34,119 nucleotides of DNA from Ruminiclostridium sp. Lineage in GTDB: Bacteria > Bacillota > Clostridia > Acetivibrionales > DTU013. The translations under genes and the position numbers were made by a program. The stretch lies in assembly GCA_012027035.1 (NCBI GenBank), contig VEPD01000072.1, positions 1 to 34,119 of the forward strand, in the 5' to 3' direction. Below, one piece after another: positions 4,072-34,119 of this stretch (its first letter is position 1; each line of letters starts with the position of its first letter). Under the pieces are notes generated by a model. The model did no database searches. It worked only from the letters and a program-made list of their open reading frames with translations, and had not been told where the DNA came from.

Positions 4072-4148
4072 ATTTTGCAACTCCTTTCCCCCGAAAATAT
4101 GCTTTTACCCTGCTTCACCAACTGTTTGATCCGTTCGAAAAATTTGCC

Positions 4149-5315
4149 CTATTTTTCACCTTGGAACAATTCGGGATGCCTTGCCGCATACTCCTCAGAA
4201 GCTTCGGTAAAAGCTGCAAGGTTTTCCAGAGGTGTTCCCGGGCATACATTTGCACCGTCGCTCAGGATAAAGCCGCCATATGGCGCTATTGCCTCAAGCG
4301 CTTCCATACATGCTTTCTTCACTTCTTGTTTTGTTCCGTTCTTCATCAGCACAGGATCGATATTCCCCGACATGAATACTTTACCTCCCATATTCCTGGC
4401 GGCTACTTCAGGAGGGACAAGCGAACCGAAATTATTAAAGCTTGATATTTTCAAATCCTCCACCAGCGTCTTGTGCAGGTGTATGCTATTTCCGCACATG
4501 TGCATTCCCCTGCTGCCGGACATCCCTGAACCAAATCTTTCATAAAGGATCTTGTCATAAGGGACGGTAAACTCCCGGAACATCGCATCGGACATGATTT
4601 GGGCGGAATCTTCAGCCAGTTGGACCGGGCCCTGCTTTTTGGAGTCGATTTTCCTGGCGTTTTCTTCGATGGAAATCAATCCTTTGGTAATCTTGTCCAG
4701 CAGCCGGTGGCACTCATCGGGATATTCCAGCATCCACCAGTAGAAATCCGTCCCCACAAGGTCCACTGCAATCATATGAGGTCCCAAACCCAGCAAAGTA
4801 AGCGGAGCAATTTCAACCCGGCCTTTTTGGCTATTGAATGTAATTTCCGTATTCCCGGCCAGCTCTTTCATTTTCAGCCACCATTCAATTGTTTTGCCGC
4901 ATAGTCCCGCATCAGGCTCAGGTATTTTGAAGGACTCTATTTCACTTACATCCTTCATAGTAGGAATAGCTTGCAGCGTCTCATTTTCCGGCCAGGCTAC
5001 CTCTACGCCGAAAGCGGATGACGCTATAACATTGTCAAAATAGGGGTGCACGTATATTACCGGCTCAGTACAGAAATCACATGGGATATTCTCGATCTGA
5101 TACTTTGCAAATTGCAAAAGCCAGTAATAATGGGTTTCTACATCCTCGAAAATTTTGCGGTAATCGATACCGAAAACCCTTGTAAAAAACCTTGGTACAA
5201 TGCAAAAACCGACGGGTACACGATCGAAGTACTTGAAATACGGCCATACTTCCAATATCTTTTTACTCTTTTCCATCTTCTCTAACGGATAATCAATGTT
5301 CAACGAAAATCTCAT
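4149..5315 (-). CDS. Uroporphyrinogen decarboxylase / MtaA-CmuA methyltransferase-like TIM-barrel protein (paralog A)
   Basis: 388 aa; DRVPV, MSDAMFREFTVPY, HMCG, GNIDP and GGFILSDGANVCPGTPLENL motifs. Confidence 0.85.
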   Translation of the reverse strand: MRFSLNIDYPLEKMEKSKKILEVWPYFKYFDRVPVGFCIVPRFFTRVFGIDYRKIFEDVETHYYWLLQFAKYQIENIPCDFCTEPVIYVHPYFDNVIASSAFGVEVAWPENETLQAIPTMKDVSEIESFKIPEPDAGLCGKTIEWWLKMKELAGNTEITFNSQKGRVEIAPLTLLGLGPHMIAVDLVGTDFYWWMLEYPDECHRLLDKITKGLISIEENARKIDSKKQGPVQLAEDSAQIMSDAMFREFTVPYDKILYERFGSGMSGSRGMHMCGNSIHLHKTLVEDLKISSFNNFGSLVPPEVAARNMGGKVFMSGNIDPVLMKNGTKQEVKKACMEALEAIAPYGGFILSDGANVCPGTPLENLAAFTEASEEYAARHPELFQGEK

Positions 5316-12923: not shown

Positions 12924-12943
12924 GTTAATCAACTCCCAATTTA

Positions 12944-13088
12944 TTAGTATATCCCTGAAGAATACCGGGTTCAATGAACAATCGTACTAATTGTACAAGA
13001 ATAATATAGGGACAGGTTGGATTTTATACATTCTATATAAAAAAACCGGACTATTTTACGATTTACGGACTAATACTACAGCGTAAAC
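12944..13088. repeat. Duplicated promoter segment, copy 2 (matches 9210-9355)
   Basis: Direct repeat of copy 1, located downstream of the intact kinase gene. Confidence 0.95.
12946..12974 (-). promoter_or_regulatory. Putative sigma-A promoter of the 879 aa gene
   Basis: Minus strand TTGAAC-17 nt-TATACT. Confidence 0.6.
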
Positions 13089-16795: not shown

Positions 16796-17185
16796 CTATA
16801 AAATCCCAAAAGTTGCTATTTGCCACGGTTTCAAATCTACTTCAAAGGTTTTGTCTCTTGTATTTATCTGCCTGATTCTATTACCTGCAAGATCAGTTTC
16901 ATAACCCTCTTCTATGGGCACTGCAAATTCAACAATTACATTCGTCTGTTTCCCTTCAGTTTCAAACAATCTGATCTCGAATCCCTTCTCACCTTTTCTT
17001 CTGAATAAAGAGGTTACAACTCCATCTCCTTTGACTGCAAGCAAACTCATTTGCTTCGGAAGAGACCCTTTAGAAGGGCTTTTTACCAAGGTTATTGCGT
17101 TGTAATCCATCTCCATGGACATCCTTAATCTTTCCTGATTGGATATAGCCATATCATGTGGTATCAGGAGGTATTTGTATTCCCA
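16796..17185 (-). pseudogene. C-terminal fragment of a GH38 alpha-mannosidase-like protein
   Basis: Frame extends upstream as EYKYLLIPH, then IRLFETEG...ETDLAG...LKPWQIATF, typical of the GH38 C-terminal beta-sandwich; no catalytic domain present. Confidence 0.7.
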
Positions 17186-17497: not shown

Positions 17498-17695
17498 TTA
17501 TCTCAAATCATGTGTTCTCGGCGGTTCAATATCCTTATCTATGAGAAACCCTTTCAGTATTTTTTCGGCTGATTGCTGGCAATGATAGCATATGATTTCC
17601 AGTTTAAGCGGATATAGATTTAACAAATATTTTGCAGTTACTAAATCATCATTTGCAAAATCATGCCATAGTTTGACTATACTGTTCTTGTCCAT
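17498..17695 (-). pseudogene. HEPN-domain protein, C-terminally truncated
   Basis: 65 aa, ICYHCQQSAEKILKGFL...PPRTHDL then stop; this class is usually about twice as long. Confidence 0.8.
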
Positions 17696-18008
17696 AGAGC
17701 TTCACCCCATCTCGGAAAATTATCCTTTCAATGGTTGGCAGTTGCTTTCGCTGATTGAATACAGTTTCCTTTCCAACCAGAATATCTACTGCCCGAATAT
17801 CTTTCCGGCTGATTGCACCACTAATTTTTTGCATAGCTTCAATAGGACGCATACTGTCGTCAGGAATAACCACATAAATGTCAAAGTCACTATCTTTATG
17901 AGGCATTCCATATGCATGGGAGCCAAATAAGTATATCTCATTAGCATTAACAGTATCTAAGATAGCCTGTTTAATACTTTCAAGCTCTTTGCTTGCTGTT
18001 ACATCCAT
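17661..18008 (-). CDS. Minimal nucleotidyltransferase (MNT), partner of HEPN
   Basis: 115 aa from ATG 18008 (GGAAGGGGG RBS); IYLFGSHAYGMPHKDSDFDIYVV motif; overlaps the HEPN start. Confidence 0.9.
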   Translation of the reverse strand: MDVTASKELESIKQAILDTVNANEIYLFGSHAYGMPHKDSDFDIYVVIPDDSMRPIEAMQKISGAISRKDIRAVDILVGKETVFNQRKQLPTIERIIFRDGVKLYGQEQYSQTMA

Positions 18009-18286
18009 AAAAAACACCCCCTTCCTTATTTCGTTATTCCGGTTATAAAGCCCACCATCAAGTACAGCTTTCGGTATACAATACATTCACCCTTGTATAA
18101 ATATTGTAGCATATTTTCTTAAAAAAGGGGAATGAATTTATTTAATCACCCAAGATTATCCACCTTTCACCGTCAAAGTCTTCGAATTTTTCAGTGGTCA
18201 CGTTCTGCTCAAAGTATACTGCCAAGATTCATTTTATGTTTTCTATTATACACTTTATTCTATTCATTTCCAATATACCTCACTTT

Positions 18287-18915
18287 GGGTGCAATTTTAA
18301 AATTTGTACCATCTATTTTAATTTATTCCATATAATGTCACGTTAAAAGGACAGTAACCGTAATATAAGCTTTGCCATCACCACTTTTGACAAAGTTTAT
18401 CTATGTTTATTAACTTGTCCTTTTCTTTCAAGACCCGTAAACACAGCTGTCTTTATGAATTACATCTACAGTAATAATATTTATAGTCCAATAACCGCTC
18501 TAACCTTATCCCATTGATTACTTGCATATTTTGCCCTCAATGCCGCCATATATTGACCTTCTGAAACACCCCACCTCATACCGGACTGCTTCATACGTTG
18601 TTGTATCACCAACTTGTTTCCACTTTCTATAGCGCCACTCCCTATATGATAGCCCCTCAACTTGTATCGCCGGTAATCTATGCGTCCTCGGTTATTCGTA
18701 ATATACACTTTCAGATTTGATACCTGGGCAGGAAGTTTCACACCTGTTAAGTCCGGGAGACTCTCCAAAACTTCATCTATAAGGCCTTTGTCTATCTTGT
18801 CCAGTATATCCTTTGCCTAGCCTTTCATCTTTATTTCATTATCAGGATACTGGTATTTGGCAAAGCTATGCACATTCTCGCTCAAATGATAATAGTCCAT
18901 AATCTGTACCGCCCG
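18287..18915 (-). mobile_element. ISKra4-like (UPF0236-related) transposase remnant, 3' part
   Basis: Frame 18915 to 18481 reads AVQIMDYYHLSE...KG*AKD...IGSGAIESGNKLVIQQRMKQSGMRW with an in-frame TAG at 18817-18819; N-terminus missing. GGGTGCAATTT at 18287 is a tentative right end. Confidence 0.78.
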
Positions 18916-18930
18916 GATTTTTAAAGGTAT

Positions 18931-19218
18931 TCACGCTTTATCCCCTCTCCCCCGCGTACTTTCAACATTATGTATATGTACATGCTGTCCCGGCAGGATA
19001 TCCTCCGTAGCTGTACCGATAGGATAGCCGTATTTTATTACCTGCTGTCCGCACAGAATATGCCGGACCGCAATTTTGTGGCCTGGCGCAATCGTATCTT
19101 TAAGCATGACTTCAAAGCGCTTTTCTTCAAAATATATTGTAACTGACTCCCCTTCTTTTTCGCCTATCAGAGCTGTTGCAACATTGTCCCCGCCGTCAAT
19201 CATAATAAACCTTCCCAT
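18931..19218 (-). CDS. UxaA-family dehydratase small subunit (SAF domain)
   Basis: DNVATAL, IAPGHKIA, VIKYGYPIG, GQHVHIHNVES motifs. ATG 19218 or GTG 19224. Confidence 0.9.
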   Translation of the reverse strand: MGRFIMIDGGDNVATALIGEKEGESVTIYFEEKRFEVMLKDTIAPGHKIAVRHILCGQQVIKYGYPIGTATEDILPGQHVHIHNVESTRGRGDKA

Positions 19219-19245
19219 GTCCACATCCTACCACCCTTTTAAAGT

Positions 19246-20403
19246 TTATGGATTTACCGATGTCCTGTAAAAGTCAAACTCATCGAACCCGAGTTCCTCG
19301 GCACAACACAGCATTTTGCCGTTAAGTATTTCAAGCATAAGATTAAAAAGCTCTTCCCCTGCTTTTTCTATACTATTCTTACCATCAATTATTCCGTTTA
19401 CAATATAATCCATATTGCAGCCCATCTTAATACCTGTTTCAGGAGTCCCGGTAATCTTCACAACAGGGGCGATCGTACTACCGACAGGCGTACCCAATCC
19501 AGTGGTAAACAGGATTATCTGGGCGCCGGAAGCAGTCATGCCGGTGTTGCAAACAACATCCTGGGAAGGGCCGTCCATAATTACAAGCCCTCTTTTTGAA
19601 GGCTTTTGCCCGTATAGGATCACTTCCTGAATTGGTGATTTCCCACCTTTATGTATTGCACCAAGGGACTTCTCTTCTATAGTTGTCAATCCTCCCTCAA
19701 TATTTCCAAGAGAAGGCTGGGTTCCGCGTATATCAACTCCATAACTCATCATAGTCTTTTCATATTCATTAACCATTGTCTTGATTTGATATGCTATCTC
19801 CTCATTTGCAGCTCTTTTTACAAGGCACTGCTCCGCCCCTATGAATTCGGTGACTTCTCCCAAAAGTACGGTTCCTCCCATTGAAACTACCTTATCTGCC
19901 GCAATACCAACTACCGGATTGGCGATAATGCCGGAGAATGTATCCGAACCTCCGCATTTTACTCCAAGAAGCAGATTTTCCATTCCCACAGGCACCCTCT
20001 TGATGTTCTCAATTTCACTTTTCCATCTCTCCAGTATGTTAACACCCTTTTCTATGGTTGAAGCAGTACCCCCGTCTTTTTGTATAGCAAGTACTTCAAC
20101 AGGTTTCCCTGACCGGCTGATCTCCTGTGCAAGCTCCATACCGCCAATTTTCTCACAACCCAGGGCCACTACCAGTACTGCAGCGACATTAGGATTTTTT
20201 CCTATTCCCTCAAGAGTCCTTTTCGCTATTTTATAGTCCTCTCCTATATGACCGCATCCGTGAAAATTATGCGCAATTGAAACGCCAGCCTTCTCCGCCA
20301 TTATTCTGGCAGTCTTTTCCGCGCATATAACAGTAGGGAGAACCAGTATATGGTTTCTGAAGCCTATTGTGCCATTTTCCCTTGGATAACCGTATAACAG
20401 CAT
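19246..20403 (-). CDS. UxaA-family (altronate/galactarate dehydratase, SuyB-like) large subunit
   Basis: 385 aa; GYPRENGTIGFRNH, HGCG, ALGCE, KCGGSD, PSLGNIEGGLTTIEEKSLG, FTTGLGTP. Confidence 0.92.
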   Translation of the reverse strand: MLLYGYPRENGTIGFRNHILVLPTVICAEKTARIMAEKAGVSIAHNFHGCGHIGEDYKIAKRTLEGIGKNPNVAAVLVVALGCEKIGGMELAQEISRSGKPVEVLAIQKDGGTASTIEKGVNILERWKSEIENIKRVPVGMENLLLGVKCGGSDTFSGIIANPVVGIAADKVVSMGGTVLLGEVTEFIGAEQCLVKRAANEEIAYQIKTMVNEYEKTMMSYGVDIRGTQPSLGNIEGGLTTIEEKSLGAIHKGGKSPIQEVILYGQKPSKRGLVIMDGPSQDVVCNTGMTASGAQIILFTTGLGTPVGSTIAPVVKITGTPETGIKMGCNMDYIVNGIIDGKNSIEKAGEELFNLMLEILNGKMLCCAEELGFDEFDFYRTSVNP

Positions 20404-20586: not shown

Positions 20587-21753
20587 TTAAACAATTGCAT
20601 GAAATAATTCCTTATGGGCTAAAGCATATTCCTCAGATGCTTCTGTCAAAGCAGCCAGGTTTTCTACAGGCGTCCCGGGGCAAACATTTGCACCGTCTCC
20701 AAGCATCAGGCCGCCGTATGGCGCCATTTCCTCCAGCGCCGCCATACAGGCCTTTTTTACTTCAGCTTTGCTTCCGGACATCATCAATACAGGGTCTATA
20801 TTGCCCCACAAAAGTACTTTTCCACCCATATTCTCAGCTGCGGTTTTTGGAGGAACAAGGTGCCCAAAAAGATTAAAGCTGGAAATCCTTAGATCCTCAA
20901 CGAGAGTTTTGTGCAGATGAATACTGTTTCCGCACATGTGCATTCCCCTGCTGTCCAACATCCCCGTGCCGAATCTGTCATACAATATCTTGTCATATGG
21001 AACGGTGAATTCTTTAAATAAATCATCAGACATTATTTGGGACGAATCCTCAGCCAACCAAAATGCGGAACGCTCCCGCGGGTCAATTTTTCTTGCATTT
21101 TCTTCAATAAGTATCATCCCTTTTGTAATTTTGTCCAAAAGCTTATGGCATTCTTCGGGATATTCCAGCATCCACCAGTAAAAATCAGCGCCCGCCAGAT
21201 CGACCGCAATCATATGGGGCCCTATGCCCAGCAAGGTAATAGGTGCCATTTCCACCCTGCCTTTTTGTCCATTGAAGGTGATATCGGTTTCCTTTGCCAG
21301 TTCCTTCATTTTAAGCCACCAGTCAATGGTCCTTCCGCATAACTGAGCATCAGGCTCAGGTATTTTGAAACTTTCTATTTCACTTGCATCCTTCATTGTA
21401 GGAATGGCATGGAGCGTTTCGTTTTTAGGCCATGCCACCTCCGCGCCAAAAGCTGAAGAAGTAATCACATTGTCAAAATAAGGATGCATATAAATGACAG
21501 GCTCAGTGCAGAAATCACATGGTATGTTCTCAATCTGATATTTTGCGAACTGCAGCAGCCAATAATACTGGGTTTCTGCGTCCCTAAAAATATCATTGTA
21601 GTCTATGCCGAAGCCCCTGGTAAAATACCTGGCCACGATACAAAAATTGACCGGCACACGGTCATGGTACTTGAAATACGGCCTTGCCTCCATCCTCTTT
21701 TTACTATTTTCCATCTTCTCAGGCGAATAATTGATATCCAATGAATATTTCAT
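20587..21753 (-). CDS. Uroporphyrinogen decarboxylase / MtaA-CmuA methyltransferase-like protein (paralog B)
   Basis: 388 aa; aligns without gaps to 4149-5315; HMCG, GNIDP and DGANVCPGTP motifs; AAGGAG RBS. Confidence 0.85.
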   Translation of the reverse strand: MKYSLDINYSPEKMENSKKRMEARPYFKYHDRVPVNFCIVARYFTRGFGIDYNDIFRDAETQYYWLLQFAKYQIENIPCDFCTEPVIYMHPYFDNVITSSAFGAEVAWPKNETLHAIPTMKDASEIESFKIPEPDAQLCGRTIDWWLKMKELAKETDITFNGQKGRVEMAPITLLGIGPHMIAVDLAGADFYWWMLEYPEECHKLLDKITKGMILIEENARKIDPRERSAFWLAEDSSQIMSDDLFKEFTVPYDKILYDRFGTGMLDSRGMHMCGNSIHLHKTLVEDLRISSFNLFGHLVPPKTAAENMGGKVLLWGNIDPVLMMSGSKAEVKKACMAALEEMAPYGGLMLGDGANVCPGTPVENLAALTEASEEYALAHKELFHAIV

Positions 21754-23849: not shown

Positions 23850-24932
23850 ATGAGTATCGATTTCAAACCTTCATACTGGGAAAAAATTAGGGAAATCTAT
23901 GGTTTATGGTGGGTGGGAAAACTTGACAGACCAATAATTCCAGTTATTCTTGAAGGAAAAGATCCTGGCAGGTGCGAGCCTGATGCCCCACTGATCACGC
24001 AAGCCAATTGCAATGATCTGACTGTTGACTCACAGGATATTGTAGATAGAATCGATTATGAGCTTTCGAAGTACAAGTATCTGGGAGACGCCTTTCCATT
24101 TTACAATTTGGACTGCTTCGGGCCGGGTGTTATAGCAGCATTTTTGGGCGCAGATCTGGACAATTCAACAGGGCGCGTATGGTTTCACCCAAAAAAAATT
24201 CTGCCGATTTCAGAAATCCATTTTGAATATAATCCGGACAATATCTGGCTTAACCGTATCAAAGATATCTGCGCTACGGCAATGAATCGCTGGCAGGGTC
24301 AAGTATTGCTTGGCATGCCTGATATTGGCGGGCCTATGGATATTTTATCCGTTTTCAGACCGGCAGACAACCTTCTATTGGATTTGTACGATTATCCGGA
24401 GGAAGTGAACAGGCTGGTCTGGGAATTACATGATTTGTGGCACCGTTTTTTTAACGAAATCAATGATGTACTCATGCCTGTGAACCCCGGTTATTCCAAC
24501 TGGTCCCAACTTTACTGCGACAAACCTTCTTATGTGCTGCAGTGTGATTTCAGTTACATGATCAGTCCGGCTATGTTCAATGAATTTGTCAAGCCTGAAC
24601 TTATCGCTTCCAGCAGAAAGCTTCCCCATACCATGTACCATCTGGATGGAATAGGCCAGTTGAACCATCTGGATTCCCTGCTTGAAATAGAGGAGTTGGA
24701 TGCGGTGCAGTGGGTTCCCGGTGAAGGAAAGCCCAATCAATCGGAATGGCCTGAAGTGTATCGGAAAATATACATGTCCGGAAAAGGAATACAGCTATTC
24801 AACGGAATTAAATGTCTTGATGAAGTTGCAGCCCAAATAGGCTCATACAAAGGAATACTCCATATGCCGATCGGAGGAGACGTCTCACAGGAGACCGAAT
24901 ATAGAAGAATGCTTGAAAAATACGGAATTTAA
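23850..24932 (+). CDS. Divergent URO-D/methyltransferase-like TIM-barrel protein
   Basis: 360 aa; LLDLYDYPEEV, QCDFSYMISPAMFNEFVKP, YHLDG, VQWVPG; GGAGG RBS. Confidence 0.75.
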   Translation: MSIDFKPSYWEKIREIYGLWWVGKLDRPIIPVILEGKDPGRCEPDAPLITQANCNDLTVDSQDIVDRIDYELSKYKYLGDAFPFYNLDCFGPGVIAAFLGADLDNSTGRVWFHPKKILPISEIHFEYNPDNIWLNRIKDICATAMNRWQGQVLLGMPDIGGPMDILSVFRPADNLLLDLYDYPEEVNRLVWELHDLWHRFFNEINDVLMPVNPGYSNWSQLYCDKPSYVLQCDFSYMISPAMFNEFVKPELIASSRKLPHTMYHLDGIGQLNHLDSLLEIEELDAVQWVPGEGKPNQSEWPEVYRKIYMSGKGIQLFNGIKCLDEVAAQIGSYKGILHMPIGGDVSQETEYRRMLEKYGI

Positions 24933-25004: not shown

Positions 25005-26297
25005 TTAACTGCTCTGCTTCAGCCCAATTTCCTTGAACACCCTTATCCTGGCCTGCAGTTCCGGATATGCGGCAACCGTTCCGGGTGCAAACATACCCTT
25101 TGCTTTGTCCTCCGTAGCAGCCTTTTCATGACCGATAAGCGCCCAGGTGGAATCGATGAGATTATCGAATTCCTTGTTCTCCATGGCTTTGCAAACGAAT
25201 GACTGCCTTGGCGAATTGATATCCTCACCGCTTATCTGGAACAATTCATGCCTATCGCACAAGGTTTTTACCCTTTTCAACTGCTTTATGGTATTTCTGG
25301 ACGGCATATAGGTGACCCCGTTAAAACCTAGTTTCTTCAAGAGTTCAAATAGTTCATCGATATAGTCATCCTCGAACTTCTGACTCTTCTTATCGCCTGT
25401 GACCGAATCACCGATATCCCCCAGATATGCATATGCGGATATTGCTCCTATGCTCCCCGTCAATTCGATAAAATCCTTTACATCAGGGCATTCTGCTTTT
25501 GCATCGATATAAAAGTCCTCAACCATTTCAGCTTTTAAAAGGCCCAGCAAATCATACCCATAATAAGGATTTTGCGGATCAAGCAGCATATTTTGTATTT
25601 TAGCGTCTATATTGAGTTTAAGACAATTTTTTAAGTATTCAAGCAATCCTGAACCTTTACCGAATTTGTCAACCAACTTAAGAGAAAGTGCATAAAGTAT
25701 ATGCCTTTCCGTTATGCTTCCACCCTCTTTATACATGGAAAGAGGCTTTACATCCTTTTCAAAATCCAGTTTGATACCTGCATTAGCGACCAGCTTGCCT
25801 ATCTTTCCCAGCATCAGTTCGTTACGCTTGTTTCTTTCAATAAGGTATGGCTGAAAGAACTTTTTAACATCCTCAATCCGGTTATGAGGAATACCGTGGA
25901 TTGCTACATATGCGACAGATCTCTGGTCAGGGTGGTTAATTCTTTTCCCTGCCAGAGGTGTTCCTGAAAAATCCACCCTGCATTCAGTACCTACCGTGGC
26001 TGCCATGCCGGTAATCTTCCCTGCCTGTATGAATTCCTCCGCTCCGCTGACGGAATCGTGGTCAACAATACCTGCCGTAATGAGGCCGGAATTGTATGCC
26101 ATCCACAAAGCCCTGGTTGGTGAATAGGGTGAAAAAGAATATGTCGTATGTATATGGTTATTGACGTATCCGCCATTCACAGGCCGTTGAATTTCTCCTG
26201 CATTAACCATGTTCATCAGCTTTCGAAGGCTGTCAAGCCTGATTTCAGCATCGCTGCTGTTAAGTTCATCAATTAATTTTAAATAATCTTCATTCAT
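25005..26297 (-). CDS. PHP-domain protein with atypical metal-ligand motifs
   Basis: 430 aa; NNHIHTTYS and GIVDHD motifs; later motifs read AYAYLGD and SGEDINSP. Confidence 0.8.
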   Translation of the reverse strand: MNEDYLKLIDELNSSDAEIRLDSLRKLMNMVNAGEIQRPVNGGYVNNHIHTTYSFSPYSPTRALWMAYNSGLITAGIVDHDSVSGAEEFIQAGKITGMAATVGTECRVDFSGTPLAGKRINHPDQRSVAYVAIHGIPHNRIEDVKKFFQPYLIERNKRNELMLGKIGKLVANAGIKLDFEKDVKPLSMYKEGGSITERHILYALSLKLVDKFGKGSGLLEYLKNCLKLNIDAKIQNMLLDPQNPYYGYDLLGLLKAEMVEDFYIDAKAECPDVKDFIELTGSIGAISAYAYLGDIGDSVTGDKKSQKFEDDYIDELFELLKKLGFNGVTYMPSRNTIKQLKRVKTLCDRHELFQISGEDINSPRQSFVCKAMENKEFDNLIDSTWALIGHEKAATEDKAKGMFAPGTVAAYPELQARIRVFKEIGLKQSS

Positions 26298-26403
26298 TAA
26301 AAAGTCACCTCATAATTTGATTCAACTAAACAGTATGGAAAAAGTGCATCCTGCATTTATTCACTTAATCCTGCTTCCCTTCAATCAATGTAAAATAGCC
26401 GGC

Positions 26404-27195
26404 TTACCGCATTTCCTGCCCGCCGGTTACATTTATAGCCTGTCCCGTCATATAGCTTGCCTGGTCGGAGGCAAGGAATACAAGTACGTTTGCTATATCT
26501 TCATATTGTGTACTCCGCTTAAGCGGCACCTGATCCAAGTATTTCTGTCTTACCTGTTCTTCGGTTATTCCCTGATTGGCTGCATACTGCTTGAAAAGGC
26601 TGTTGGGTCCCTGCGTCCACAAAGGCGAATCAAGAAGGTTGCCTGGACAAATGGCATTTACCCTTATACCAAATTCGGCTAATTCCAATGCAAGGCTTTG
26701 TGTAAATCCGATGCCGCCGAACTTGGCGGAAGCATATGCGGAGTTTTTATATGAGCCCTTTTTCCCTGATTTGCTGTTTATCTGGATTATACTTCCCTTA
26801 CGTTTAGGTATCATCACTTTGGCGGCTGTTTTGGCGCAAAGGAAATAACCCACAAGGTTTACTTCCATCATCTTTCTCCACTGCTCCACTGGAAATTCAA
26901 CCACCGGCTTCGCAATAAGTATGGCTGCGTTTGAAACCATTAAATCCAGTGTTCCGTATTTCTTAACAGCTGCATCCACCATGGCTTCCACCTGCTGTTC
27001 ATCGCATACGTCCACCTTTACTGCAATAGCGTTGCTCAAACTTTTTGCAACATTATCCGCCGCTTCAAAATTGATATCGGCTGCAACCACTTTGCAGCCC
27101 TCCTGGTCCAGCCTGCGTGCCAGGGCCTCTCCAAGCCCCTGTCCGGCGCCTGTGATTATTGCTACCTGTCCATCCAGTCTTCTTAATTGACACAT
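26404..27195 (-). CDS. srlD: Sorbitol-6-phosphate 2-dehydrogenase-like SDR
   Basis: TGAGQGLG, IQINSKSGKKGS, YASAKFGG, GNLLDSP, YLDQVPLKR and TGQAINVTGGQEM closely follow SrlD. ATG 27195 after AAAGGA. Confidence 0.85.
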   Translation of the reverse strand: MCQLRRLDGQVAIITGAGQGLGEALARRLDQEGCKVVAADINFEAADNVAKSLSNAIAVKVDVCDEQQVEAMVDAAVKKYGTLDLMVSNAAILIAKPVVEFPVEQWRKMMEVNLVGYFLCAKTAAKVMIPKRKGSIIQINSKSGKKGSYKNSAYASAKFGGIGFTQSLALELAEFGIRVNAICPGNLLDSPLWTQGPNSLFKQYAANQGITEEQVRQKYLDQVPLKRSTQYEDIANVLVFLASDQASYMTGQAINVTGGQEMR

Positions 27196-27257
27196 ATATA
27201 TCATCCTTTGGTATTATTTTTATGTTTATTACCGCGAAATGCAGCTTTGCTTACCAG

Positions 27258-28031
27258 CTAAAGCAATGCTACATTGAATTTCTCCGCTTCATTTATTATG
27301 TCCTGGGGCAGGGTGGTTTCAGCCACCCATACATCAATATCATCCAGGGCGGCATAGGTAAACGGCAGATTTTTGTTGACTTTGGAAGTATCCATCAGTA
27401 AAATGACTTTTCTTGCCCTTTTGATGATCTTTCTTTTCAATTCGCACTCATAGATGTTTGATACTGTAAAGCCGCTATCTATTGAGAATCCGGAAGACGC
27501 CATAAAAGCCGTATCGATATTGACGCTATCAAGAGACAGAATGGCGTCCGGGCCTGAAGTGGAAAGTGTATTGCGGTTTACAAGGCCTCCCAGGAGCACT
27601 ACTGAAGTGCGGAGCTTCTTTACAAGCTCAAGAGCTATATTGGCGCCACTGGTAAATATGGAATAGCTGTCATCGGCCAATATCCTTGCAAGGCACATTA
27701 CTGTGCTGCCTGCATCAAAGTAAATCGACCGGCCCTTTTCCACCATGTCAATTGCCTTATCCGCTATTTTCAGTTTTGCTTCCACATTCTCCGCCGCTCT
27801 TCTTGAATATGAATCTTCTTCGCCACTGTAAACTGTGCCTGCAGAGAGCCTTTTCAGGCTGACAGCCCCACCGTGGGTGCGAATTAACCGTCCTTCGGAT
27901 TCAAGCCCTATAAGATCCCTTCTGAGTGTCATCATGGAAACGTCAGGAAACAATTCTTTTAATTGCTGAAGCTGAACTTCGCTTTTACTGTCAAGCAGTT
28001 GAAGAATCTGCTGTTGCCTGCTGTTGTTCAT
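27258..28031 (-). CDS. DeoR/GlpR-family transcriptional regulator
   Basis: ATG 28031 after GGAGGAG; VSMMTLRRDL, RTHGGA, IYFDAGST, LMDTSK. Confidence 0.95.
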   Translation of the reverse strand: MNNSRQQQILQLLDSKSEVQLQQLKELFPDVSMMTLRRDLIGLESEGRLIRTHGGAVSLKRLSAGTVYSGEEDSYSRRAAENVEAKLKIADKAIDMVEKGRSIYFDAGSTVMCLARILADDSYSIFTSGANIALELVKKLRTSVVLLGGLVNRNTLSTSGPDAILSLDSVNIDTAFMASSGFSIDSGFTVSNIYECELKRKIIKRARKVILLMDTSKVNKNLPFTYAALDDIDVWVAETTLPQDIINEAEKFNVALL

Positions 28032-28061
28032 TTTCTCCTCCGCCCTCCCCAAATATTTTTT

Positions 28062-28195
28062 CCTTTTCAAAAGGGGACATTCCTCAGGCTCTCGTAGCCC
28101 TTCTTCTTTGCTGACGTGTGTCCCCTTACCTTTTCAAAAGGGGACATTCCTCAGGCCCTTGTAGCCCTTCTTCTTTGCTGAGGTGTGTCCCCTTA
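28062..28195. repeat. Tandem 2 x 67 bp palindromic (REP-like) repeat
   Basis: Units 28062-28128 and 28129-28195 are 64/67 identical; each has AAGGGGACA...TGTCCCCTT arms. Confidence 0.9.
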
Positions 28196-28197
28196 CC

Positions 28198-30669
28198 TTA
28201 AACTCCCAGCCTGTTTGTCCTTATTTGTTCGTTTGCAGTATAATTATTTCTGGCTACATGTCCCTTAAGAGGCATTATCTTTTCATGAATAGCATCAATA
28301 ATCCATCCGGGCTGCGGGAAAAAAGCCTCTTCCAGCTCGTAGGCAGGTGTGATCCAGTTTTTCGCGCCAACTACCACCGGAGGCGCATCCAGATAATCGA
28401 AGCCAAGCTCGCAAATATTGCGGGCCATGTCGGACAGATGTGAACCGCGTTCGCAGGCATCGCTGGCAAGAAGTATCCTGCCTGTCTTTTTCAAGGATTC
28501 CAGCACCTTTTCATAATTGAAAGGTACAATGCTTCTGGCATCAATGACTTCAGCCGATATGCCGTATTTTTCCTCCAGTATTTTCGCTGCGTCAAGAGCT
28601 CTGTACAAGGTTGCTCCAATAGTCAGTATGGTGATATCCCTGCCTTTCTTCTTGATGTCCGGCTCACCCAGAGGAATTTCATAATAGCCCTCCGGCACAC
28701 CTTCCATTTGGAACATTTCACCTATATCGTAAACTCTCTGGCTTTCAAAGAATATTACCGGGTCGGTACCCATAAGGGCCGTATTCATTAAACCTTTGGC
28801 ATCATAAGGCGTTACCGGGAAAACTGCTTTGAGCCCCGGGATGTGCGCTATGATGGAAGTCCAGTCCTGTGAATGCTGCGCGCCGTATTTTGAGCCTATT
28901 GAAACCCTCACTACCACAGGCATCTTCAATATTCCCGCACTCATCGACTGCCATTTGGACAGCTGGTTGAACACTTCGTCACCGGCTCTTCCCAGGAAAT
29001 CGCAGTACATGAGTTCAACAACGGCTCTGCCTCCGCAAAGTCCATATCCTACAGCAGTACCGACTATTGCGCCTTCAGAAATCGGCGAATTGAACAGCCT
29101 GTGATAAGGCATGGCTTCGGTAAGGCCTCTGTATACTGCAAAAGCGCCGCCCCAATCTCTGTTTTCTTCACCGTAGGCAATGAATGTAGGGTCTGTATAA
29201 AATTTATCTAAAATAGCCTCAAAGATACCGTCCCTGAGCTGGTAAACCTTATTTTTGGGGACGGGCTTTCCATCCTGGAATGCGCTTCTTACCTTTTTCT
29301 GTATCTGCTGCACTCTTGGATTTTCTTCCTTGGAGATAAGAGCATCACAAGGCCTGTTTTCCATTTTCTCAACTCTCTGATTGGAAAACATAAGGTCACC
29401 TATGGCATTGGGGTTTTTAACCATGTCCATCCTGGGTGACACATTGTCATCTGTGGCCATTTTGCAAGCTTTGGTAACAAGCTCTCTGGTATTTTCAAGT
29501 ATGGCGTCAAACTCTTCTGCTTTTGCAACACCGGCCAGTATGAGCTTATTCCTGTATTCAATCAATGAATCATTTTCAAGCCATGCTTCAATTTCTTCCT
29601 TTGTCCTGTAGCTGGAAGCGTCTGAAGGAGAGTGTCCGGTAAATCTGTATGTCAGAGTGTCAAGCAATACCGGTCCGTCCTTTTCTTCCAGAACCTTCAT
29701 CTTTCTTCTCATTACATCTATGACAGCCAGCGGATTGTATCCGTCCACCCTCTCGGCATGCATCTGTTCGGGATTTACACCGGCGCCCACACGGGCAAGC
29801 ACATTATAGCCCATAGTCTCGCCAACCGTCTGGCCGCCCATTCCATACTGGTTGTTAAAGAAATTAAGGATGTATGGCAGGCCGCCCTTGTATTCACCCT
29901 CCCAAAGGGTCTTGAACTGGTCCATTGCAGCAAAGCACAGGCCTTCCCAAACCGGTCCGCAACCCATGGAGGCGTCGCCGATATTGCCTATGACAATGCC
30001 TTTTTTCTTGTTGACTTTTTTATAGAGTGCGGCGCCTACGGATATATCGCCCGAACCGCCGACAATCGCATTATTGGGATAAATCCCGAAAGGGGTGAAG
30101 AATGCATGCATTGAGCCGCCAAGGCCTTTATGGAAGCCTGTTTCCCTGGCAAATATTTCAGCCAGGGTGCCGTAAATCAGAAAATCAACTGCAAGCTCCC
30201 TGACATCGCTTTTATTTTTCTGTTTGCCTTCCACAACTTTCAGGATAGCTCCATCAAAGAACTTCTCCATTATTTCCAGCAATTCCTTGTCACTGAGCTT
30301 TTGTATTGCTGAAAGGCCCTTTGCCAGGATATCGCCGTGGCTTCTGTGGGAGCCGAAAATATAGTCGTCCCTGCCCAGCAGGTATGCCTGACCAACAACC
30401 GACGCTTCCTGCCCGATGGAAAGGTGGGCGGGTCCCGGGTGGTTGTATTGTATGCCGTTATACTCATTTGTAGTTTTGATTGCATTCAGCATTGTTTCAA
30501 ATTCACGGATTATGGTCATGTCCCTGTATATCCTGAGGAAATCCTCCCTGGAATAGTTGGCTTTTTCCTCTTCAATTGTCTTATTATACTGGTTTATGGG
30601 AATATCCGCGAATCTCACCTTACCGCTTTTTCTTACCTCTTTCGGGTTGATAAATATTGATTTTGGCAT
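28198..30669 (-). CDS. Fused E1 alpha/beta, TPP-dependent 2-oxoacid/acetoin dehydrogenase family
   Basis: 823 aa; [21 protein letters not shown] motif GDA...[15 protein letters not shown], then beta-domain [24 protein letters not shown]. Confidence 0.93.
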
Positions 30670-30697
30670 TATGAAACCTCAGCTTTCTGTTATAAGT

Positions 30698-32065
30698 TTA
30701 TTTAAATTCGAAAATAGCTTCACGTATTATTTCACATACTGTAGGGTGCGGGAAAACCAATTCCTTGATGTCTTCCACCCGCATCTGGGTTTCAATCATC
30801 ATTCCCGCGCCATAAATAAGCTCCGACGAATAATTTCCTATCATATGCACACCCAGCAGCCGTCTGGTCCCTTTTTCGATGAGCGCTTTGCAAATACCGT
30901 CCCCGCCTTCGTTCTCAGCCGCATATCTTCCGCTGTACATCATTGACAGCCTGACTGCTTCAAATTCGATACCCTTCTGTTTTGCTGTTTCTTCGGTTTC
31001 ACCGACGCAGCCGTCTTCAGGGTTTGTATATATTACTGAAGGTATGGCCTCATACCTCATTAAGTCTTTTCTGCCAAGAATATTATTGATGCATACCTCG
31101 GCTTCCCTGTATGCTGTATGAGCCAGCATGGAAGTGCCGTTTACATCTCCGGCTGCATATACCTCCGGAATATTTGTCTTGCCTCTTGCATCCACCTTGA
31201 TGCCGCCTTTTTCCAGTTCGACACCTATCGTTTCCAGCCCGATTCCGTTTACCACAGGCCTGCGGCCTATGCTCATCAGCACTTTTTCCGCATCGGCAGA
31301 ATAGGTCCGGCCTTCGGATTCATAAACGACAGAGCCTTCCTTCACCTCAACCACCTTGCAGTTCAGCTTGAACTCCACGCCTTTTTTCTTGTAATTTTTC
31401 AGGAGTATTTCCGATATCTGCCTGTCGGTGTAGCCGGCTATATGATCAAGCATTTCTATGACGGTAACCCTGCTCCCGGCAGAATTGAAATACGATGCCA
31501 TTTCAAGGCCTATCACCCCGCCGCCCACTATTACAAGCGATGCGGGAATACTTCTGATATCAAGTATTTCTCTATTTGTTAGGACATAACCTTTATCCAG
31601 ACCTTCCTTCACTCCGGTTATCGGAGGTATGACCGGCATGGATCCGGTAGCAATCAATAACCTTTTACCTGTATATTTTTCATTTCCGGATTTGACTTCA
31701 TAACCTTCCGGATTTCTTCCGGTGATTTCACCCAGGCCTTCCAACAGTGTCACATTACTGGCTTTCAGCTTGCCTTTTATACCGGCTACAAGCATTCTGA
31801 CCACTCTATTTTTTCTTTCTATAACCGCTTCATGGTTAAAAGTTACATTTTCAGCCGTTACACCATATTTTTCACCATGTTTGACCGAGTCGTAAATCTT
31901 CGCGGAATATAACAGGGCCTTGGAAGGTATGCAGCCTTCATTCAGGCAGACGCCCCCCACAAATCTTTTTTCTATGAGCAGAGTGTTCAATCCCCCGTGT
32001 CCAGCCCTCTCGGCTGCCAGATATCCGGCAGGGCCGCCGCCTAATATAATCAGATCATAAATCAT
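30698..32065 (-). CDS. lpdA: Dihydrolipoyl dehydrogenase (E3)
   Basis: GGGPAGY, GGVCLNEGCIPSK, GGGVIGLE, MLAHTA, HPTVCE. Confidence 0.96.
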   Translation of the reverse strand: MIYDLIILGGGPAGYLAAERAGHGGLNTLLIEKRFVGGVCLNEGCIPSKALLYSAKIYDSVKHGEKYGVTAENVTFNHEAVIERKNRVVRMLVAGIKGKLKASNVTLLEGLGEITGRNPEGYEVKSGNEKYTGKRLLIATGSMPVIPPITGVKEGLDKGYVLTNREILDIRSIPASLVIVGGGVIGLEMASYFNSAGSRVTVIEMLDHIAGYTDRQISEILLKNYKKKGVEFKLNCKVVEVKEGSVVYESEGRTYSADAEKVLMSIGRRPVVNGIGLETIGVELEKGGIKVDARGKTNIPEVYAAGDVNGTSMLAHTAYREAEVCINNILGRKDLMRYEAIPSVIYTNPEDGCVGETEETAKQKGIEFEAVRLSMMYSGRYAAENEGGDGICKALIEKGTRRLLGVHMIGNYSSELIYGAGMMIETQMRVEDIKELVFPHPTVCEIIREAIFEFK

Positions 32066-32092
32066 TTTATCGCCTCCATTTTTTATTTACCT

Positions 32093-33478
32093 CTATTTCA
32101 CCAGCAGCAAGCTGAAATTCTCCAGGTTTTCCTTCAGATCCTTAAGGAATCTCGCAGCCGGCGCACCGTCAAGTGCCCTGTGGTCAAAGGTGAGGGACAG
32201 TCCCATGGCGGGGTAATAGACATACTGCCCATTAACCTCTTTCACTCTTTGAATTATATTGTTGACTCCGAGGATTCCCGTCTGCGGAGGATTGAGCACC
32301 GGGGTGAAGGATTCAATGCCCAGTGTGCCCAGATTTGTGATGGTAAATGTGCCGCCTTTAAGATCATCAAGTTTGATGGTTCCCTTCTGGCAGCTCTCAG
32401 CCAGCTTCTTGGCCTCACTTGATATTTCATTCAGCGATTTAAGGTTTGCACTTCTAAGAGTGGGAACCATAAGTCCTTTTTCAGTATCAACGGCTATTCC
32501 CAGATTTGCATTTTTGTAGATATTCATTTTGTCATCAAGAAAATGAGCATTCAAACTCTTGTGATTCAGAATGGTTCTTGAAACTGTATATAGAATTATA
32601 TCATTTATGGTGATATTCTCAAAACCCAGGCTGTTTCCCGCGTTTTTCAGCTTTTTGCGGAAGGCCAGGATATCGGTTGCATCAAAAGAGGAATTTAATG
32701 TAAGCTGTGCGGCAGAAGTCAGTGACTGCTGCATGGCTTTTGAAATGACTTTACGGATACTGGTGAGCTTGACCTCCTCAAACTCCGGCAGTATGCCGGC
32801 CGGAGCTGCAGCGGGAACGGGTTGGACCGTACTTCCGGATGCGGAAGGCGTCACAGGTGCGCGATTAACATCATCAACAGTTATCCTCCCGCCGATTCCG
32901 GAACCTTCAGCTGCATTAAAATCGGGATGCAATCCTTTTGCTGCAGTTGTAACAAGACGTCCGCCGTCTCTAAGTGCTGCAACATCCCTTTCAATGATTC
33001 TTCCGTCTGGTCCCGAAGGCTCAGCAAAGCGCAGATCGACTCCCGCTTTTTCAGCCAGATTTTTTGCACGGGGGGATATTTTCATTTTACCGTCCTGGTT
33101 GTGCATGGATACTTCAACCTTATGGGCTCCAATTTCAGGCGCGGCTTTTACTTCAATTTCTGTTGCAGCCACCGCTTCCGGTTTAGTTGACGGCGCGGCA
33201 TCCTGTTTTGAATTCGGGTTGAATATCGAAGCATCTTCACCTTCGTTTCCAATTGCGCAAACATTCAACAGACAGGGTACATCGTCACCTTCCTGAAAAA
33301 AGATATCCAGCAGTATCCCACCTGCCTTTGCTTCTTCATCAAAGGTTGCCTTGTCCGTCTCATATGTAAAAAGTACATCCCCGGCTTGCACCCTGTCGCC
33401 TTTTTTCTTTACCCATTTGGATATTATGCAGCTTTCAACGGATTGACCCTGACGCGGCATGATCACTGGTATTGCCAT
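32093..33478 (-). CDS. Dihydrolipoamide acyltransferase (E2)
   Basis: One lipoyl domain (ETDKA), E3-binding domain (ISPRAKNLA...SGPDGRI), catalytic GGTFTITNLG and FDHRALDG; AGGAGG RBS. Confidence 0.95.
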   Translation of the reverse strand: MAIPVIMPRQGQSVESCIISKWVKKKGDRVQAGDVLFTYETDKATFDEEAKAGGILLDIFFQEGDDVPCLLNVCAIGNEGEDASIFNPNSKQDAAPSTKPEAVAATEIEVKAAPEIGAHKVEVSMHNQDGKMKISPRAKNLAEKAGVDLRFAEPSGPDGRIIERDVAALRDGGRLVTTAAKGLHPDFNAAEGSGIGGRITVDDVNRAPVTPSASGSTVQPVPAAAPAGILPEFEEVKLTSIRKVISKAMQQSLTSAAQLTLNSSFDATDILAFRKKLKNAGNSLGFENITINDIILYTVSRTILNHKSLNAHFLDDKMNIYKNANLGIAVDTEKGLMVPTLRSANLKSLNEISSEAKKLAESCQKGTIKLDDLKGGTFTITNLGTLGIESFTPVLNPPQTGILGVNNIIQRVKEVNGQYVYYPAMGLSLTFDHRALDGAPAARFLKDLKENLENFSLLLVK

Positions 33479-33564
33479 ATAGACCTCCTGTTTTTTTATT
33501 GGATTATTATCTTCAATGTTACTTTATCACTATGCAGTGTTACAAATTAACATTAACAAGATGT

Positions 33565-33594
33565 ATTCTAACATATCACGGCAAAAGATGTCAA
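33565..33594 (-). promoter_or_regulatory. Sigma-A promoter of the E2-E3-E1 operon
   Basis: Minus strand TTGACA-18 nt-TAGAAT with TGn extended -10; repeated TAACA motifs nearby could be DeoR operators. Confidence 0.7.
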
Positions 33595-33611: not shown

Positions 33612-34028
33612 CACGGCAAAATCATGAACCCATATTTTTCCTAGCCCTTTATCAAGAGCTTTTTAAAAAATGCAGTTTCAGCATTAATATTAAAGAAAAC
33701 CGCCTGTATATCTGACTCTTGGGCCTTTCAAAGATTGCAGAAAGACCGAATGGATATTTGACAAGCCGGATGATCTATTCCGGATACACCCCGCTATTCA
33801 CAATTTAACTTCAAGCTATTATCTGTTTTTAAAATTCAAGTCAATTAAGTAATCACGATATGCAAAATCAAGTCCTGCTATGAATCGTCGGCTTTTCATA
33901 CTCTCTTTCGGGTGCTTTTTAGTATCATTTTTTACCAAGTTGAATGCTATCCTTTTCAATAAAGCCATGTTTTGCGGAGCAGTACCCTTTCTTGTCCGAT
34001 TAGCGTCATCACCATAGGTAACATCCAG
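33612..34028 (-). mobile_element. ISAs1-family element remnant (transposase C-terminus 33819-34028 plus putative right inverted repeat)
   Basis: Hand translation LDVTYGDDANRTRKGTAPQNMALLKRIAFNLVKND...SMKSRRFIAGLDFAYRDYLI matches the ISAs1 C-terminus; CACGGCAAAATCATGA at 33612 resembles ISAs1 ends. Confidence 0.8.
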
Positions 34029-34119
34029 ATTATCCCAGTTCTCAGATAATCTGGATTATCCCAGAAGTTCTGTTATCCGAGAAGAAGTGCCACGTGGCCG
34101 TTTCAATCTGCGTAGTGCA

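Follow-up and report, generated by a model that had tools for sequence, protein, structure and literature searches.

A lipoate-dependent dehydrogenase complex with a fused E1 in a probable L-rhamnose/L-fucose catabolic module of Ruminiclostridium sp.

What substrate does a lipoate-dependent dehydrogenase complex serve when its genes stand in line with genes of sugar metabolism? The question is raised by a locus of Ruminiclostridium sp. (GenBank assembly GCA_012027035.1) in which six genes, all on the minus strand, occupy positions 25005–33594 of the window, by which is meant the whole stretch of 34,119 nucleotides analysed; the window is the entire contig C102 of the 527-contig genome G000. 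In order, they encode a dihydrolipoamide acyltransferase (E2), a dihydrolipoyl dehydrogenase (E3), a fused alpha-beta E1 that depends on thiamine diphosphate, a DeoR-family regulator, a short-chain dehydrogenase/reductase (SDR) resembling the sorbitol-6-phosphate dehydrogenase SrlD and a PHP-fold metal-dependent protein. A first-pass annotation made from the sequence alone had listed these six genes behind one promoter, and Pfam, NCBIfam and fold comparisons agree with it on both positions and families. It had gone on to describe a sugar-alcohol operon in which the SDR makes a ketose or ketose phosphate that the complex then cleaves. The comparisons below suggest instead, with a probability of about 0.8, that these genes make up the greater part of a conserved module which breaks down two 6-deoxyhexoses, L-rhamnose and L-fucose, and has a lipoate complex of its own.

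Conservation of the module across phyla

The fused-E1/E2/E3 complex is linked across phyla to the SrlD-like SDR, to a RhaE-like (class II aldolase-type) domain, to the PHP-fold protein and to MDR421, a zinc-dehydrogenase-like protein of 421 residues. The fused E1 is present in 23 of 41 related genomes (74–91% identity), and at least 601 loci emerged when one genome per species was scanned. The best 80 of these (64–91% identity) represent at least nine phyla and include Bacillota, Bacteroidota, Spirochaetales, Verrucomicrobiota, Planctomycetota, Acidobacteriota, Armatimonadota (Armatimonadaceae), Fibrobacteria, candidate Atribacteria and Halanaerobiales; most genomes compared are metagenome bins, and Caldicoprobacter oshimai DSM 21659 is a named isolate among the best 80. 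In the loci of 19 relatives the E1 is accompanied by the SDR (16/19), the PHP-fold protein (13/19) and a DeoR-type regulator (17/19; 12 at 55% identity or more and five at 28–29%), both where these genes follow E1 and where they are divergently transcribed. This linkage is far beyond chance. The first-pass annotation had named in advance, as a refuting outcome, a linkage to sugar genes that is not conserved; the linkage to the SDR, the PHP-fold protein and a regulator of the sugar-phosphate type is kept across phyla.

The open reading frames (ORFs) of the best 80 loci were clustered and then re-searched by tblastn (minimum identity 35%, or 45% for SDR, DeoR and E3 and 50% for E1, with half of the query or more aligned), and neighbours were counted in the 32 loci having at least 6 kb on each side of E1. 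E2 is found in 27 of these, E3 in 23 and MDR421 in 21; the SDR stands alone in 19 and is fused to an aldolase-like domain in nine, the PHP-fold protein occurs in 16 and a distant subfamily of it in six, and a RhaE-like gene (10/32), a kinase (8/32), LipA/LipB (7/32) and the L-fucose isomerase FucI (4/32) are less frequent. At least one gene of the rhamnose/fucose type is present in 25 of the 32 loci, and in 35 of the best 80, many of which lie on short contigs. In Bacillota and Bacteroidota loci the kinase scores 503–530 bits on the rhamnulokinase model (cut-off 528), and further neighbours are FucI, the L-rhamnose isomerases RhaA or RhaI, the RhaT symporter and, in three Bacteroidales loci, a FucA-like class II aldolase. 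Operons such as MDR421-E2-E3-E1-SDR-PHP-kinase-FucI (L096, L072 and L077) and E2-E3-E1-DeoR-SDR-PHP-kinase-RhaA-RhaE-like (L023) unite most of these genes. No match to a phosphotransferase system (PTS) or polyol-transport family was found among the window ORFs scanned, and the sugar-alcohol operon of the first pass gives way to a rhamnose/fucose context. In several rhamnose operons the genes of the kinase and of the rhamnose isomerase are separated by a small gene of the ASRT family (PF07100, 'Anabaena sensory rhodopsin transducer'; L065 5265–5639, L135 2398–2769 and L107 9932–10306), which may encode a sugar-binding or mutarotase-like component.

Across the 41 genomes, the PHP-fold protein occurs in 21 (21 of the 23 with the fused E1, none of the 18 without), the RhaE-like protein in 18 (18 of 23, none of 18) and MDR421 in 26 (22 of 23, four of 18); two features of these counts weigh against the reading as a module, namely that the 41 genomes are kin, so that the counts are not independent events, and that MDR421 occurs in four genomes that lack the fused E1. 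In two of these four genomes, MDR421 (67 and 66% identity to that of G000) lies directly beside an E3-like gene (60–63% identity to the window E3) with no E1 or E2 (G023:C17 6706–9439, L138; G017:C51 3548–6423, L139); the pair is either what is left of the module or an indication that the two proteins cooperate on their own.

Components of the module

The fused E1 (823 residues; 30669–28198) contains the domains E1_dh, Transket_pyr and Transketolase_C (PF00676, PF02779 and PF02780), all above their Pfam cut-offs. The motifs HRSHG and GGSMH and the third motif YR..GH, which the first pass had called AcoA-like, are present, but they are generic to E1-alpha, as unfused paralogues of the same genome carry HRGHGH, G[KR]GGSMH and YR..GHS..D. 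The fused protein differs from these paralogues in an N-terminal extension, in a spacing of 74 residues between HRSHG and GGSMH against 30 in three paralogues (a 44-residue insertion) and in its PF00676 score, which is 127–149 bits against 203–304 for five unfused paralogues of the same genome. An alignment of 13 fused-E1 orthologues from at least nine phyla contains 252 invariant columns. In an alignment to the Geobacillus E1p (1w85/3duf), with residue roles taken from PMC2663715 (section 6), the His of YRxxGHS in the alpha part and the cofactor-activating Glu and the HSQ His in the beta part are all kept, and the loop that precedes the catalytic His lacks a counterpart of T124-P125 of 1w85 and is shorter. 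As far as such an alignment can indicate, conserved catalytic residues together with one differing loop leave the substrate of E1 undecided.

All pyruvate dehydrogenase (PDH) E1 models score below their cut-offs on the fused E1 (TIGR03182, 190.1 against 393.85 bits; NF006667, 232.9 against 321; NF008854, 220.8 against 454). A homologue search with the alpha part returned almost exclusively contig-end fragments of the same fused family under generic names, such as the JGI name '2-oxoisovalerate dehydrogenase E1 component', and did not place the fused E1 relative to AcoA, PdhA or BkdA. Because the protein is named only generically in these sources, annotation pipelines currently mislabel a family of at least 601 loci. 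Besides the fused E1, G000 holds five full-length unfused E1-alpha genes (contigs C485, C125, C513, C364 and C497) and a contig-end fragment of another (C249), a set that is unusually large for an anaerobic Bacillota genome.

E2 (461 residues; 33478–32093) consists of one lipoyl domain (PF00364), an E3-binding domain (PF02817) and a 2-oxoacid dehydrogenase catalytic domain of the canonical PF00198 type; every NCBIfam equivalog model for the E2 of PDH, 2-oxoglutarate dehydrogenase (OGDH) and the Aco system scores under its cut-off. E3 (455 residues; 32065–30698) passes TIGR01350 (472.7 against 408.8 bits).

The SDR (266 residues; 27204–26404) passes the sorbitol-6-phosphate dehydrogenase equivalog NF009050 (364 against 307 bits), and its closest solved relative is SrlD (5o3z; 234.7 bits, with the next match at 165.9). 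On the RhaEW model it reaches 184.6 bits against a cut-off of 567.75 and on BudC 209 against 270. Since NF009050 is passed while the RhaEW and BudC models are not, a sugar-phosphate substrate is indicated. Elsewhere the SDR forms the C-terminal domain of proteins of 674–686 residues with a class II aldolase-like N-terminal part (L078, L080 and L090), a fusion present in Verrucomicrobiota, Planctomycetota, Acidobacteriota and some Bacteroidales; the SDR part of these fused forms still scores best on the SrlD model (204–227 bits), and the fused forms themselves stay far below the RhaEW equivalogs (TIGR02632, 309.9 against 567.75; NF006190, 313.7 against 1014). The window SDR is thus the dehydrogenase half of a split RhaEW-like protein and is probably not a sorbitol-6-phosphate dehydrogenase feeding fructose-6-phosphate; its resemblance to SrlD holds for the equivalog score and does not extend to a glucitol PTS context.

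The aldolase-like half in G000 is a RhaE-like protein of 352 residues, encoded on contig C337 directly after a rhamnulokinase-like FGGY kinase; related genomes have the gene behind those of the kinase and RhaA, in many cases only a few kb away from the module. Standalone clostridial RhaE-like proteins align with the N-terminal part of the fusions, C-terminal extension included. The only solved match is the uncharacterized 3m4r, from which aldolase and epimerase cannot be told apart; 4-epimerases are also members of the family.

MDR421 is followed by LipB and LipA on a separate 3.4-kb contig (C413), and its closest solved relatives are sorbitol dehydrogenases and a ketose reductase. In both genomes of the same genus (L030 and L031) these three genes lie about 2 kb upstream of E2. 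Transposase remnants are found at window positions 18481–18768 and 33820–34119, and the contig ends inside one of them, just upstream of the E2 promoter, which is probably why MDR421, LipB and LipA are on a contig of their own. The first-pass parts list was right for the window and missed this set as well as the kinase and RhaE-like genes on C337. Contig C412 ends with an L-fucose isomerase gene and C252 carries an L-rhamnose isomerase.

The PHP-fold protein (430 residues; 26297–25005) is weakly assigned by sequence (PF02811, 24.1 bits, below the cut-off of 26.4) and firmly by predicted fold: an AlphaFold model built from a 33-sequence alignment (pLDDT 92.6) matches 3e0f, 3o0f, 9etk and 2yb1 in Foldseek with E values from 6e-11 to 2e-9 and target-normalised TM scores of 0.69–0.72. 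Its gene always adjoins that of the SDR. The HxH motif is retained (H48 and H50), the Asp of 'SDG', aligned in 3e0f, is replaced by Phe (F55) in 33 of 33 members and the DHD His is missing from the subfamily of Bacteroidota and the Planctomycetes–Verrucomicrobia–Chlamydiae (PVC) group; these positions are metal ligands in canonical PHP proteins. As one such ligand is replaced by the invariant F55, the protein may not be a plain phosphatase. ESM Atlas clusters name it only 'PHP domain-containing protein' and 'histidinol-phosphatase'.

The regulator (28070–27258) combines an HTH_DeoR domain with a DeoRC sensor domain. Its relatives align only from residue 14–16 onward, so that the true start may lie downstream of the TTG. 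Across loci the module regulator is of the DeoR or GntR type. A search for a shared operator upstream of E2, the kinase gene (C337) and MDR421 (C413) gave only 14-mers with two mismatches, which are unconvincing.

More distant orthologues were found by a protein search of plasmids. Full-length fused E1 proteins of 51–55% identity, with the same N-terminal extension and insertion, are encoded on plasmids of Rhizobium, Agrobacterium and Pleomorphomonas. There the genes after E1 encode, in this order, a 78-residue lipoyl protein, an alpha/beta-fold hydrolase and a SorC-type regulator. The first two jointly match the AcoC model NF011457, and their being split keeps the scores on the three plasmids (152.9–159.1 bits) under the cut-off of 307. 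The adjoining kinase is XylB-type (463–495 bits, cut-off 380) or fructokinase-like PfkB, and in Agrobacterium and Pleomorphomonas XylB-type kinases and a polyol dehydrogenase adjoin the E1. The Agrobacterium locus has a sugar ATP-binding cassette (ABC) transporter, a mannitol-dehydrogenase-family gene and LipA in one direction of transcription, and the locus on pRL8 of Rhizobium johnstonii 3841 has sugar ABC transporters together with genes resembling psicose-3-epimerase and the mutarotase FucU. The annotation of the three plasmid loci includes no aldolase, SDR or PHP gene, so the E1 substrate there should be close to the kinase product. A 'fucose operon protein', pRL80090, is needed in the rhizosphere according to the part of 10.1101/2020.05.07.082560 that was available, and it could not be mapped securely onto the fused-E1 locus of pRL8.

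Candidate reactions of the complex

The reaction that we tentatively favour, at somewhat less than even odds, is one in which a methyl-ketone (1-deoxy-2-ketose) sugar phosphate is split oxidatively, in the manner of acetoin, into acetyl-CoA and an aldose phosphate. The substrate would derive from L-fuculose-1-phosphate or L-rhamnulose-1-phosphate through two dehydrogenases. MDR421, being polyol-dehydrogenase-like, would reduce C2 of the ketose-1-phosphate, and the SrlD-like SDR would oxidize C5, next to the methyl group and in the same position relative to the phosphate as in sorbitol-6-phosphate, giving a 1-deoxy-2-ketohexose 6-phosphate, or the 5-keto derivative if C2 is not reduced. The fused E1 would then cleave CH3-CO-|-CHOH-R as it would acetoin, with transfer of the acetyl group to lipoamide and on to CoA, formation of NADH by E3 and release of the aldose phosphate as a tetrose-4-phosphate. 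On paper, L-fuculose-1-phosphate would lead to 1-deoxy-D-tagatose-6-phosphate and L-rhamnulose-1-phosphate to 1-deoxy-D-sorbose-6-phosphate, two compounds whose sole difference would be at the future aldehyde carbon. The RhaE-like and PHP-fold proteins might adjust stereochemistry or resolve or dephosphorylate the C4 product, steps that are speculative in detail, and the regulator would sense the ketose-1-phosphate. In this scheme the methyl-bearing half would be oxidized to acetyl-CoA instead of ending, as it usually does, as 1,2-propanediol or in a microcompartment. The same class of substrate also fits the alphaproteobacterial loci, where a deoxy-hexitol or 1-deoxy-ketose could pass from the kinase to E1. 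The first-pass idea of an acetoin-dehydrogenase-like complex acting on a ketose or its phosphate is in general terms compatible with these plasmid loci, in which E1 stands with an AcoC-type E2 and sugar kinases.

In its most specific form, which is possible but unlikely to be right in all its parts, the fused E1 would define a family of acetyl-transferring 1-deoxy-ketose-phosphate:lipoamide oxidoreductases and the module a third route for L-fucose and L-rhamnose, without lactaldehyde or propanediol, yielding acetyl-CoA and erythrose-4-phosphate. MDR421 would act as the C2 reductase, the SDR as the C5 oxidase, the RhaE-like protein as a 4-epimerase and not an aldolase and the PHP-fold protein as a 3-epimerase or phosphatase, with E1 serving 1-deoxy-ketoses or deoxy-hexitols in Alphaproteobacteria.

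Several points weigh against this chemistry. The stereochemistry of the tetrose is derived on paper only, and a 4-epimerase is required to reach erythrose-4-phosphate. Six class II aldolase paralogues of the same genome share their Glu, HxH and NHG His with the RhaE-like protein, and in FucA these are the catalytic and metal-binding residues; in G020, a near-complete genome, nothing else matches PF00596. On the plain reading, the RhaE-like protein cleaves rhamnulose-1-phosphate to dihydroxyacetone phosphate (DHAP) and lactaldehyde, which would leave only a C3 compound for the complex. The aldolase-SDR fusion moreover shares the architecture of RhaEW, measured as an aldolase and lactaldehyde dehydrogenase, and the data yield no role for the PHP-fold protein.

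Followed through, the plain reading becomes a C3 route in which a RhaE-like aldolase forms DHAP and L-lactaldehyde, the SDR (as the equivalent of RhaW) and MDR421 lead to pyruvate via lactate or methylglyoxal and the complex is a dedicated PDH that yields acetyl-CoA and CO2. Besides the aldolase residues, the single aldolase-family member of G020 and the fusion of the SDR to an aldolase-like domain in several phyla, it draws on a measured precedent, since RhaEW showed aldolase and lactaldehyde dehydrogenase activity giving DHAP and lactate (PMC3870299, available part). It also accounts for a module common to fucose-type and rhamnose-type loci, whose known shared product is lactaldehyde, and for the conserved catalytic His residues of E1. 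It is nonetheless unlikely. The SDR is SrlD-like rather than RhaW-like (364 against 184.6 bits), no known type of lactate dehydrogenase belongs to the module, MDR421 resembles polyol dehydrogenases and the divergent E1 falls below the PDH models. The plasmid orthologues, with their AcoC-type E2 and sugar kinases and with neither aldolase nor SDR annotated in three loci, do not fit it, and the PHP-fold protein is left unexplained. In at least one of these anaerobes, the near-complete relative G020, genes of the 2-oxoacid:ferredoxin oxidoreductase type adjoin the module (L024), so that a dedicated PDH seems unnecessary.

An improbable variant reverses the order of the two steps: the SDR would oxidize C5 of the ketose-1-phosphate, the aldolase-like domain would release DHAP and methylglyoxal and the complex would convert the latter to acetyl-CoA and formate. 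It makes the SDR and the aldolase-like domain consecutive, in keeping with their fusion, and agrees with the regiochemistry of SrlD. Two Bacteroidales loci contain an aldo-keto reductase whose best model is the methylglyoxal reductase YdjG (226.6 bits, cut-off 550). Methylglyoxal is toxic, we know of no E1 reaction of this type, and both the alphaproteobacterial contexts, with a kinase beside E1 and no aldolase annotated, and the PHP-fold protein remain unexplained. RhaEW itself bears on this variant in two ways, as it formed no DHAP without NAD+, which fits a dehydrogenase-first order, and as its reported product was lactate and not methylglyoxal (PMC3870299, available part).

The version given in the first pass, in which the SDR makes a ketose phosphate from a sugar-alcohol phosphate and the complex cleaves C2–C3 to glycolyl-CoA and a shorter aldose, is very improbable. 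In its favour are an SrlD-like SDR above its equivalog cut-off and, near E1 in Agrobacterium and Pleomorphomonas, XylB-type kinases above theirs with a polyol dehydrogenase. Against it, no polyol-transport or PTS genes were found among the scanned window ORFs, the rhamnulokinase-like kinases of the Bacillota and Bacteroidota loci make 1-phosphates, so that the C2 unit would be phosphoglycolyl, central metabolism already takes up ordinary ketose phosphates with no need of a complex like this one, and the context is one of deoxy sugars. Nothing in the data favours glycolyl-CoA, and an acetyl product from the methyl end of a deoxy sugar suits the context better. That the complex is an ordinary dehydrogenase for acetoin/2,3-butanediol, pyruvate or branched-chain 2-oxoacids and adjoins sugar genes by coincidence, although consistent with a domain content like that of any alpha/beta-type E1-E2-E3 and with the JGI name, is likewise very improbable, given a linkage to the SDR, PHP, MDR and RhaE-like genes that survives rearrangements and spans phyla, the restriction of the PHP-fold and RhaE-like proteins to genomes with this E1 among the 41, the sub-threshold BudC, PDH, OGDH and Aco E2 scores and the unfused E1-alpha genes (five and a fragment) available for ordinary roles.

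Three further ideas were set aside: cleavage of acetol by the complex, in which formaldehyde would be set free; conversion of lactaldehyde directly into lactyl-CoA or formyl-CoA, which would give the SDR nothing to do; and the PHP-fold protein as a substitute for the aldolase, which fails because it co-occurs with the aldolase-like domain.

Cleavage of a deoxy-sugar phosphate by the complex, if true, would be a new pathway and, in its most specific form, the deoxy-sugar equivalent of phosphoketolase or transketolase, working oxidatively and through lipoate. Pectin, mucin, fucoidan and the surface polysaccharides of bacteria have rhamnose and fucose among their major sugars, and in textbook anaerobic catabolism the methyl-bearing half of these sugars ends as 1,2-propanediol or needs a microcompartment. 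A lipoate-dependent route to acetyl-CoA would alter the ATP and hydrogen balances assumed for deoxy-sugar fermentations, as well as what metabolic models predict for bacteria of many phyla in guts, digesters and sediments; it would also widen the substrate range known for the 2-oxoacid/acetoin dehydrogenase family.

Locus layout and comparison with known systems

The gaps between the six genes, from E2 through PHP, are 27, 28, 127, 53 and 106 bp, with no terminator-like site in any of them. A promoter-like site upstream of E2 (33594–33565, minus strand; TTGACA-18-TAGAAT with an upstream TG) matches the consensus at 11 of 12 positions. This candidate promoter is a consensus match only, in a region whose 18 promoter-like sites do not exceed shuffled sequence (15.7 ± 4.5), and position 33594 coincides with the start coordinate of the first-pass annotation. 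The 127-bp gap between E1 and DeoR (28071–28197) is filled by two tandem copies of a 57-nt palindromic element (AAGGGGACA ... TGTCCCCTT) with a predicted hairpin energy of –25.4 kcal/mol per unit and eight sites in the genome, these two and six on other contigs. The element looks like an intergenic repeat of the repetitive extragenic palindromic (REP) kind and could serve as an attenuator or mRNA stabilizer. Because these repeats occupy the E1–DeoR gap, DeoR-SDR-PHP may be a separately modulated unit.

The rest of the window includes a polysaccharide-utilization-like region with ABC permeases, a two-component system, AraC regulators and a rhamnosidase-like gene (2503–4080). Among these genes lie three ORFs without a Pfam match at an E value of 1e-5 or better (5417–7183, 10284–12974 and 23850–24932; 588, 896 and 360 residues), the last of which has none at the default 1e-3 either. 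Two URO-D/MtaA-like (methyltransferase-like) genes are found at 4149–5315 and 20587–21753, and a third member lies upstream of the module in Caldicoprobacter-type loci (L037 891–1973); a link to methylated sugars is possible. A UxaA-family altronate/galactarate dehydratase-like gene is present as two adjacent ORFs, a small N-terminal piece (18931–19224) and one with GD_AH_second and GD_AH_C (19246–20403), representing a split form or a frameshift. At 17498–18086 a nucleotidyltransferase ORF (Polbeta/NTP_transf_2) overlaps a 65-residue ORF, likely a toxin–antitoxin-type pair, and beside it lies a C-terminal fragment of glycoside hydrolase 38 (16796–17152); this stretch looks like a collection of gene remnants.

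No lipoate- and thiamine-dependent E1-E2-E3 complex linked to rhamnose or fucose catabolism or to ketose cleavage was found in the literature searched, which comprised main texts and few subscription journals, in line with the first-pass statement that no characterized example was known. The available part of PMC3870299 makes no mention of such a complex, and that of PMC11958385 covers only the planctomycete microcompartment route.

The kind of enzyme is already known, whereas no description was found, in the literature searched, of the divergent fused E1, of its constant association with RhaEW-like, PHP-fold and MDR proteins or of its place in deoxy-sugar catabolism. The LsrK/LsrG/LsrF pathway for phosphorylated autoinducer 2 (phospho-AI-2) is similar in outline: it has an FGGY kinase and a SorC/DeoR-type regulator, and a small phosphorylated keto sugar is then cleaved to a triose phosphate and an acyl-CoA. 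Its thiolase LsrF has a class I aldolase fold and uses neither thiamine nor lipoate. SrlD shares with the window SDR the NF009050 match and the closest solved structure, and differs in that the SDR occurs here without glucitol PTS genes among the scanned ORFs, is tied to deoxy-sugar genes and is elsewhere fused to an aldolase-like domain. The alpha/beta PDH of Geobacillus (1w85/3duf) has the same domain order, and its cofactor-activating Glu and beta His (H128 in 1w85) align with those of the fused E1, whereas the PDH scores below cut-off, the shorter loop at T124-P125, the gene fusion and the sugar-catabolic context set the present system apart.

RhaEW (Bacillus subtilis YuxG and Chloroflexus; PMC3870299, available part) likewise joins a class II aldolase-like domain to an SDR, which are fused in four phyla and split here, and is encoded in rhamnose loci beside RhaA, RhaB and a DeoR regulator. 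The present proteins score far under its equivalog cut-offs (184.6 and 309.9 against 567.75), their SDR is closest to SrlD and the system always includes a lipoate complex and the PHP-fold protein, neither of which is reported for the characterized RhaEW operons. Acetoin dehydrogenase (AcoA/AcoB/AcoC/AcoL), which is found in strict anaerobes, has the same alpha/beta thiamine-diphosphate E1, lipoyl E2 and E3. It shares with the plasmid orthologues an AcoC-matching lipoyl protein and hydrolase and, in the proposed chemistry, the conversion of an alpha-hydroxy methyl ketone to acetyl-CoA and an aldehyde. In contrast, the E1 described here is an alpha/beta fusion with an N-terminal extension and a 44-residue insertion, the window E2 is of the canonical PF00198 type, no butanediol dehydrogenase is present (BudC, 209 against 270 bits) and the neighbours are deoxy-sugar genes.

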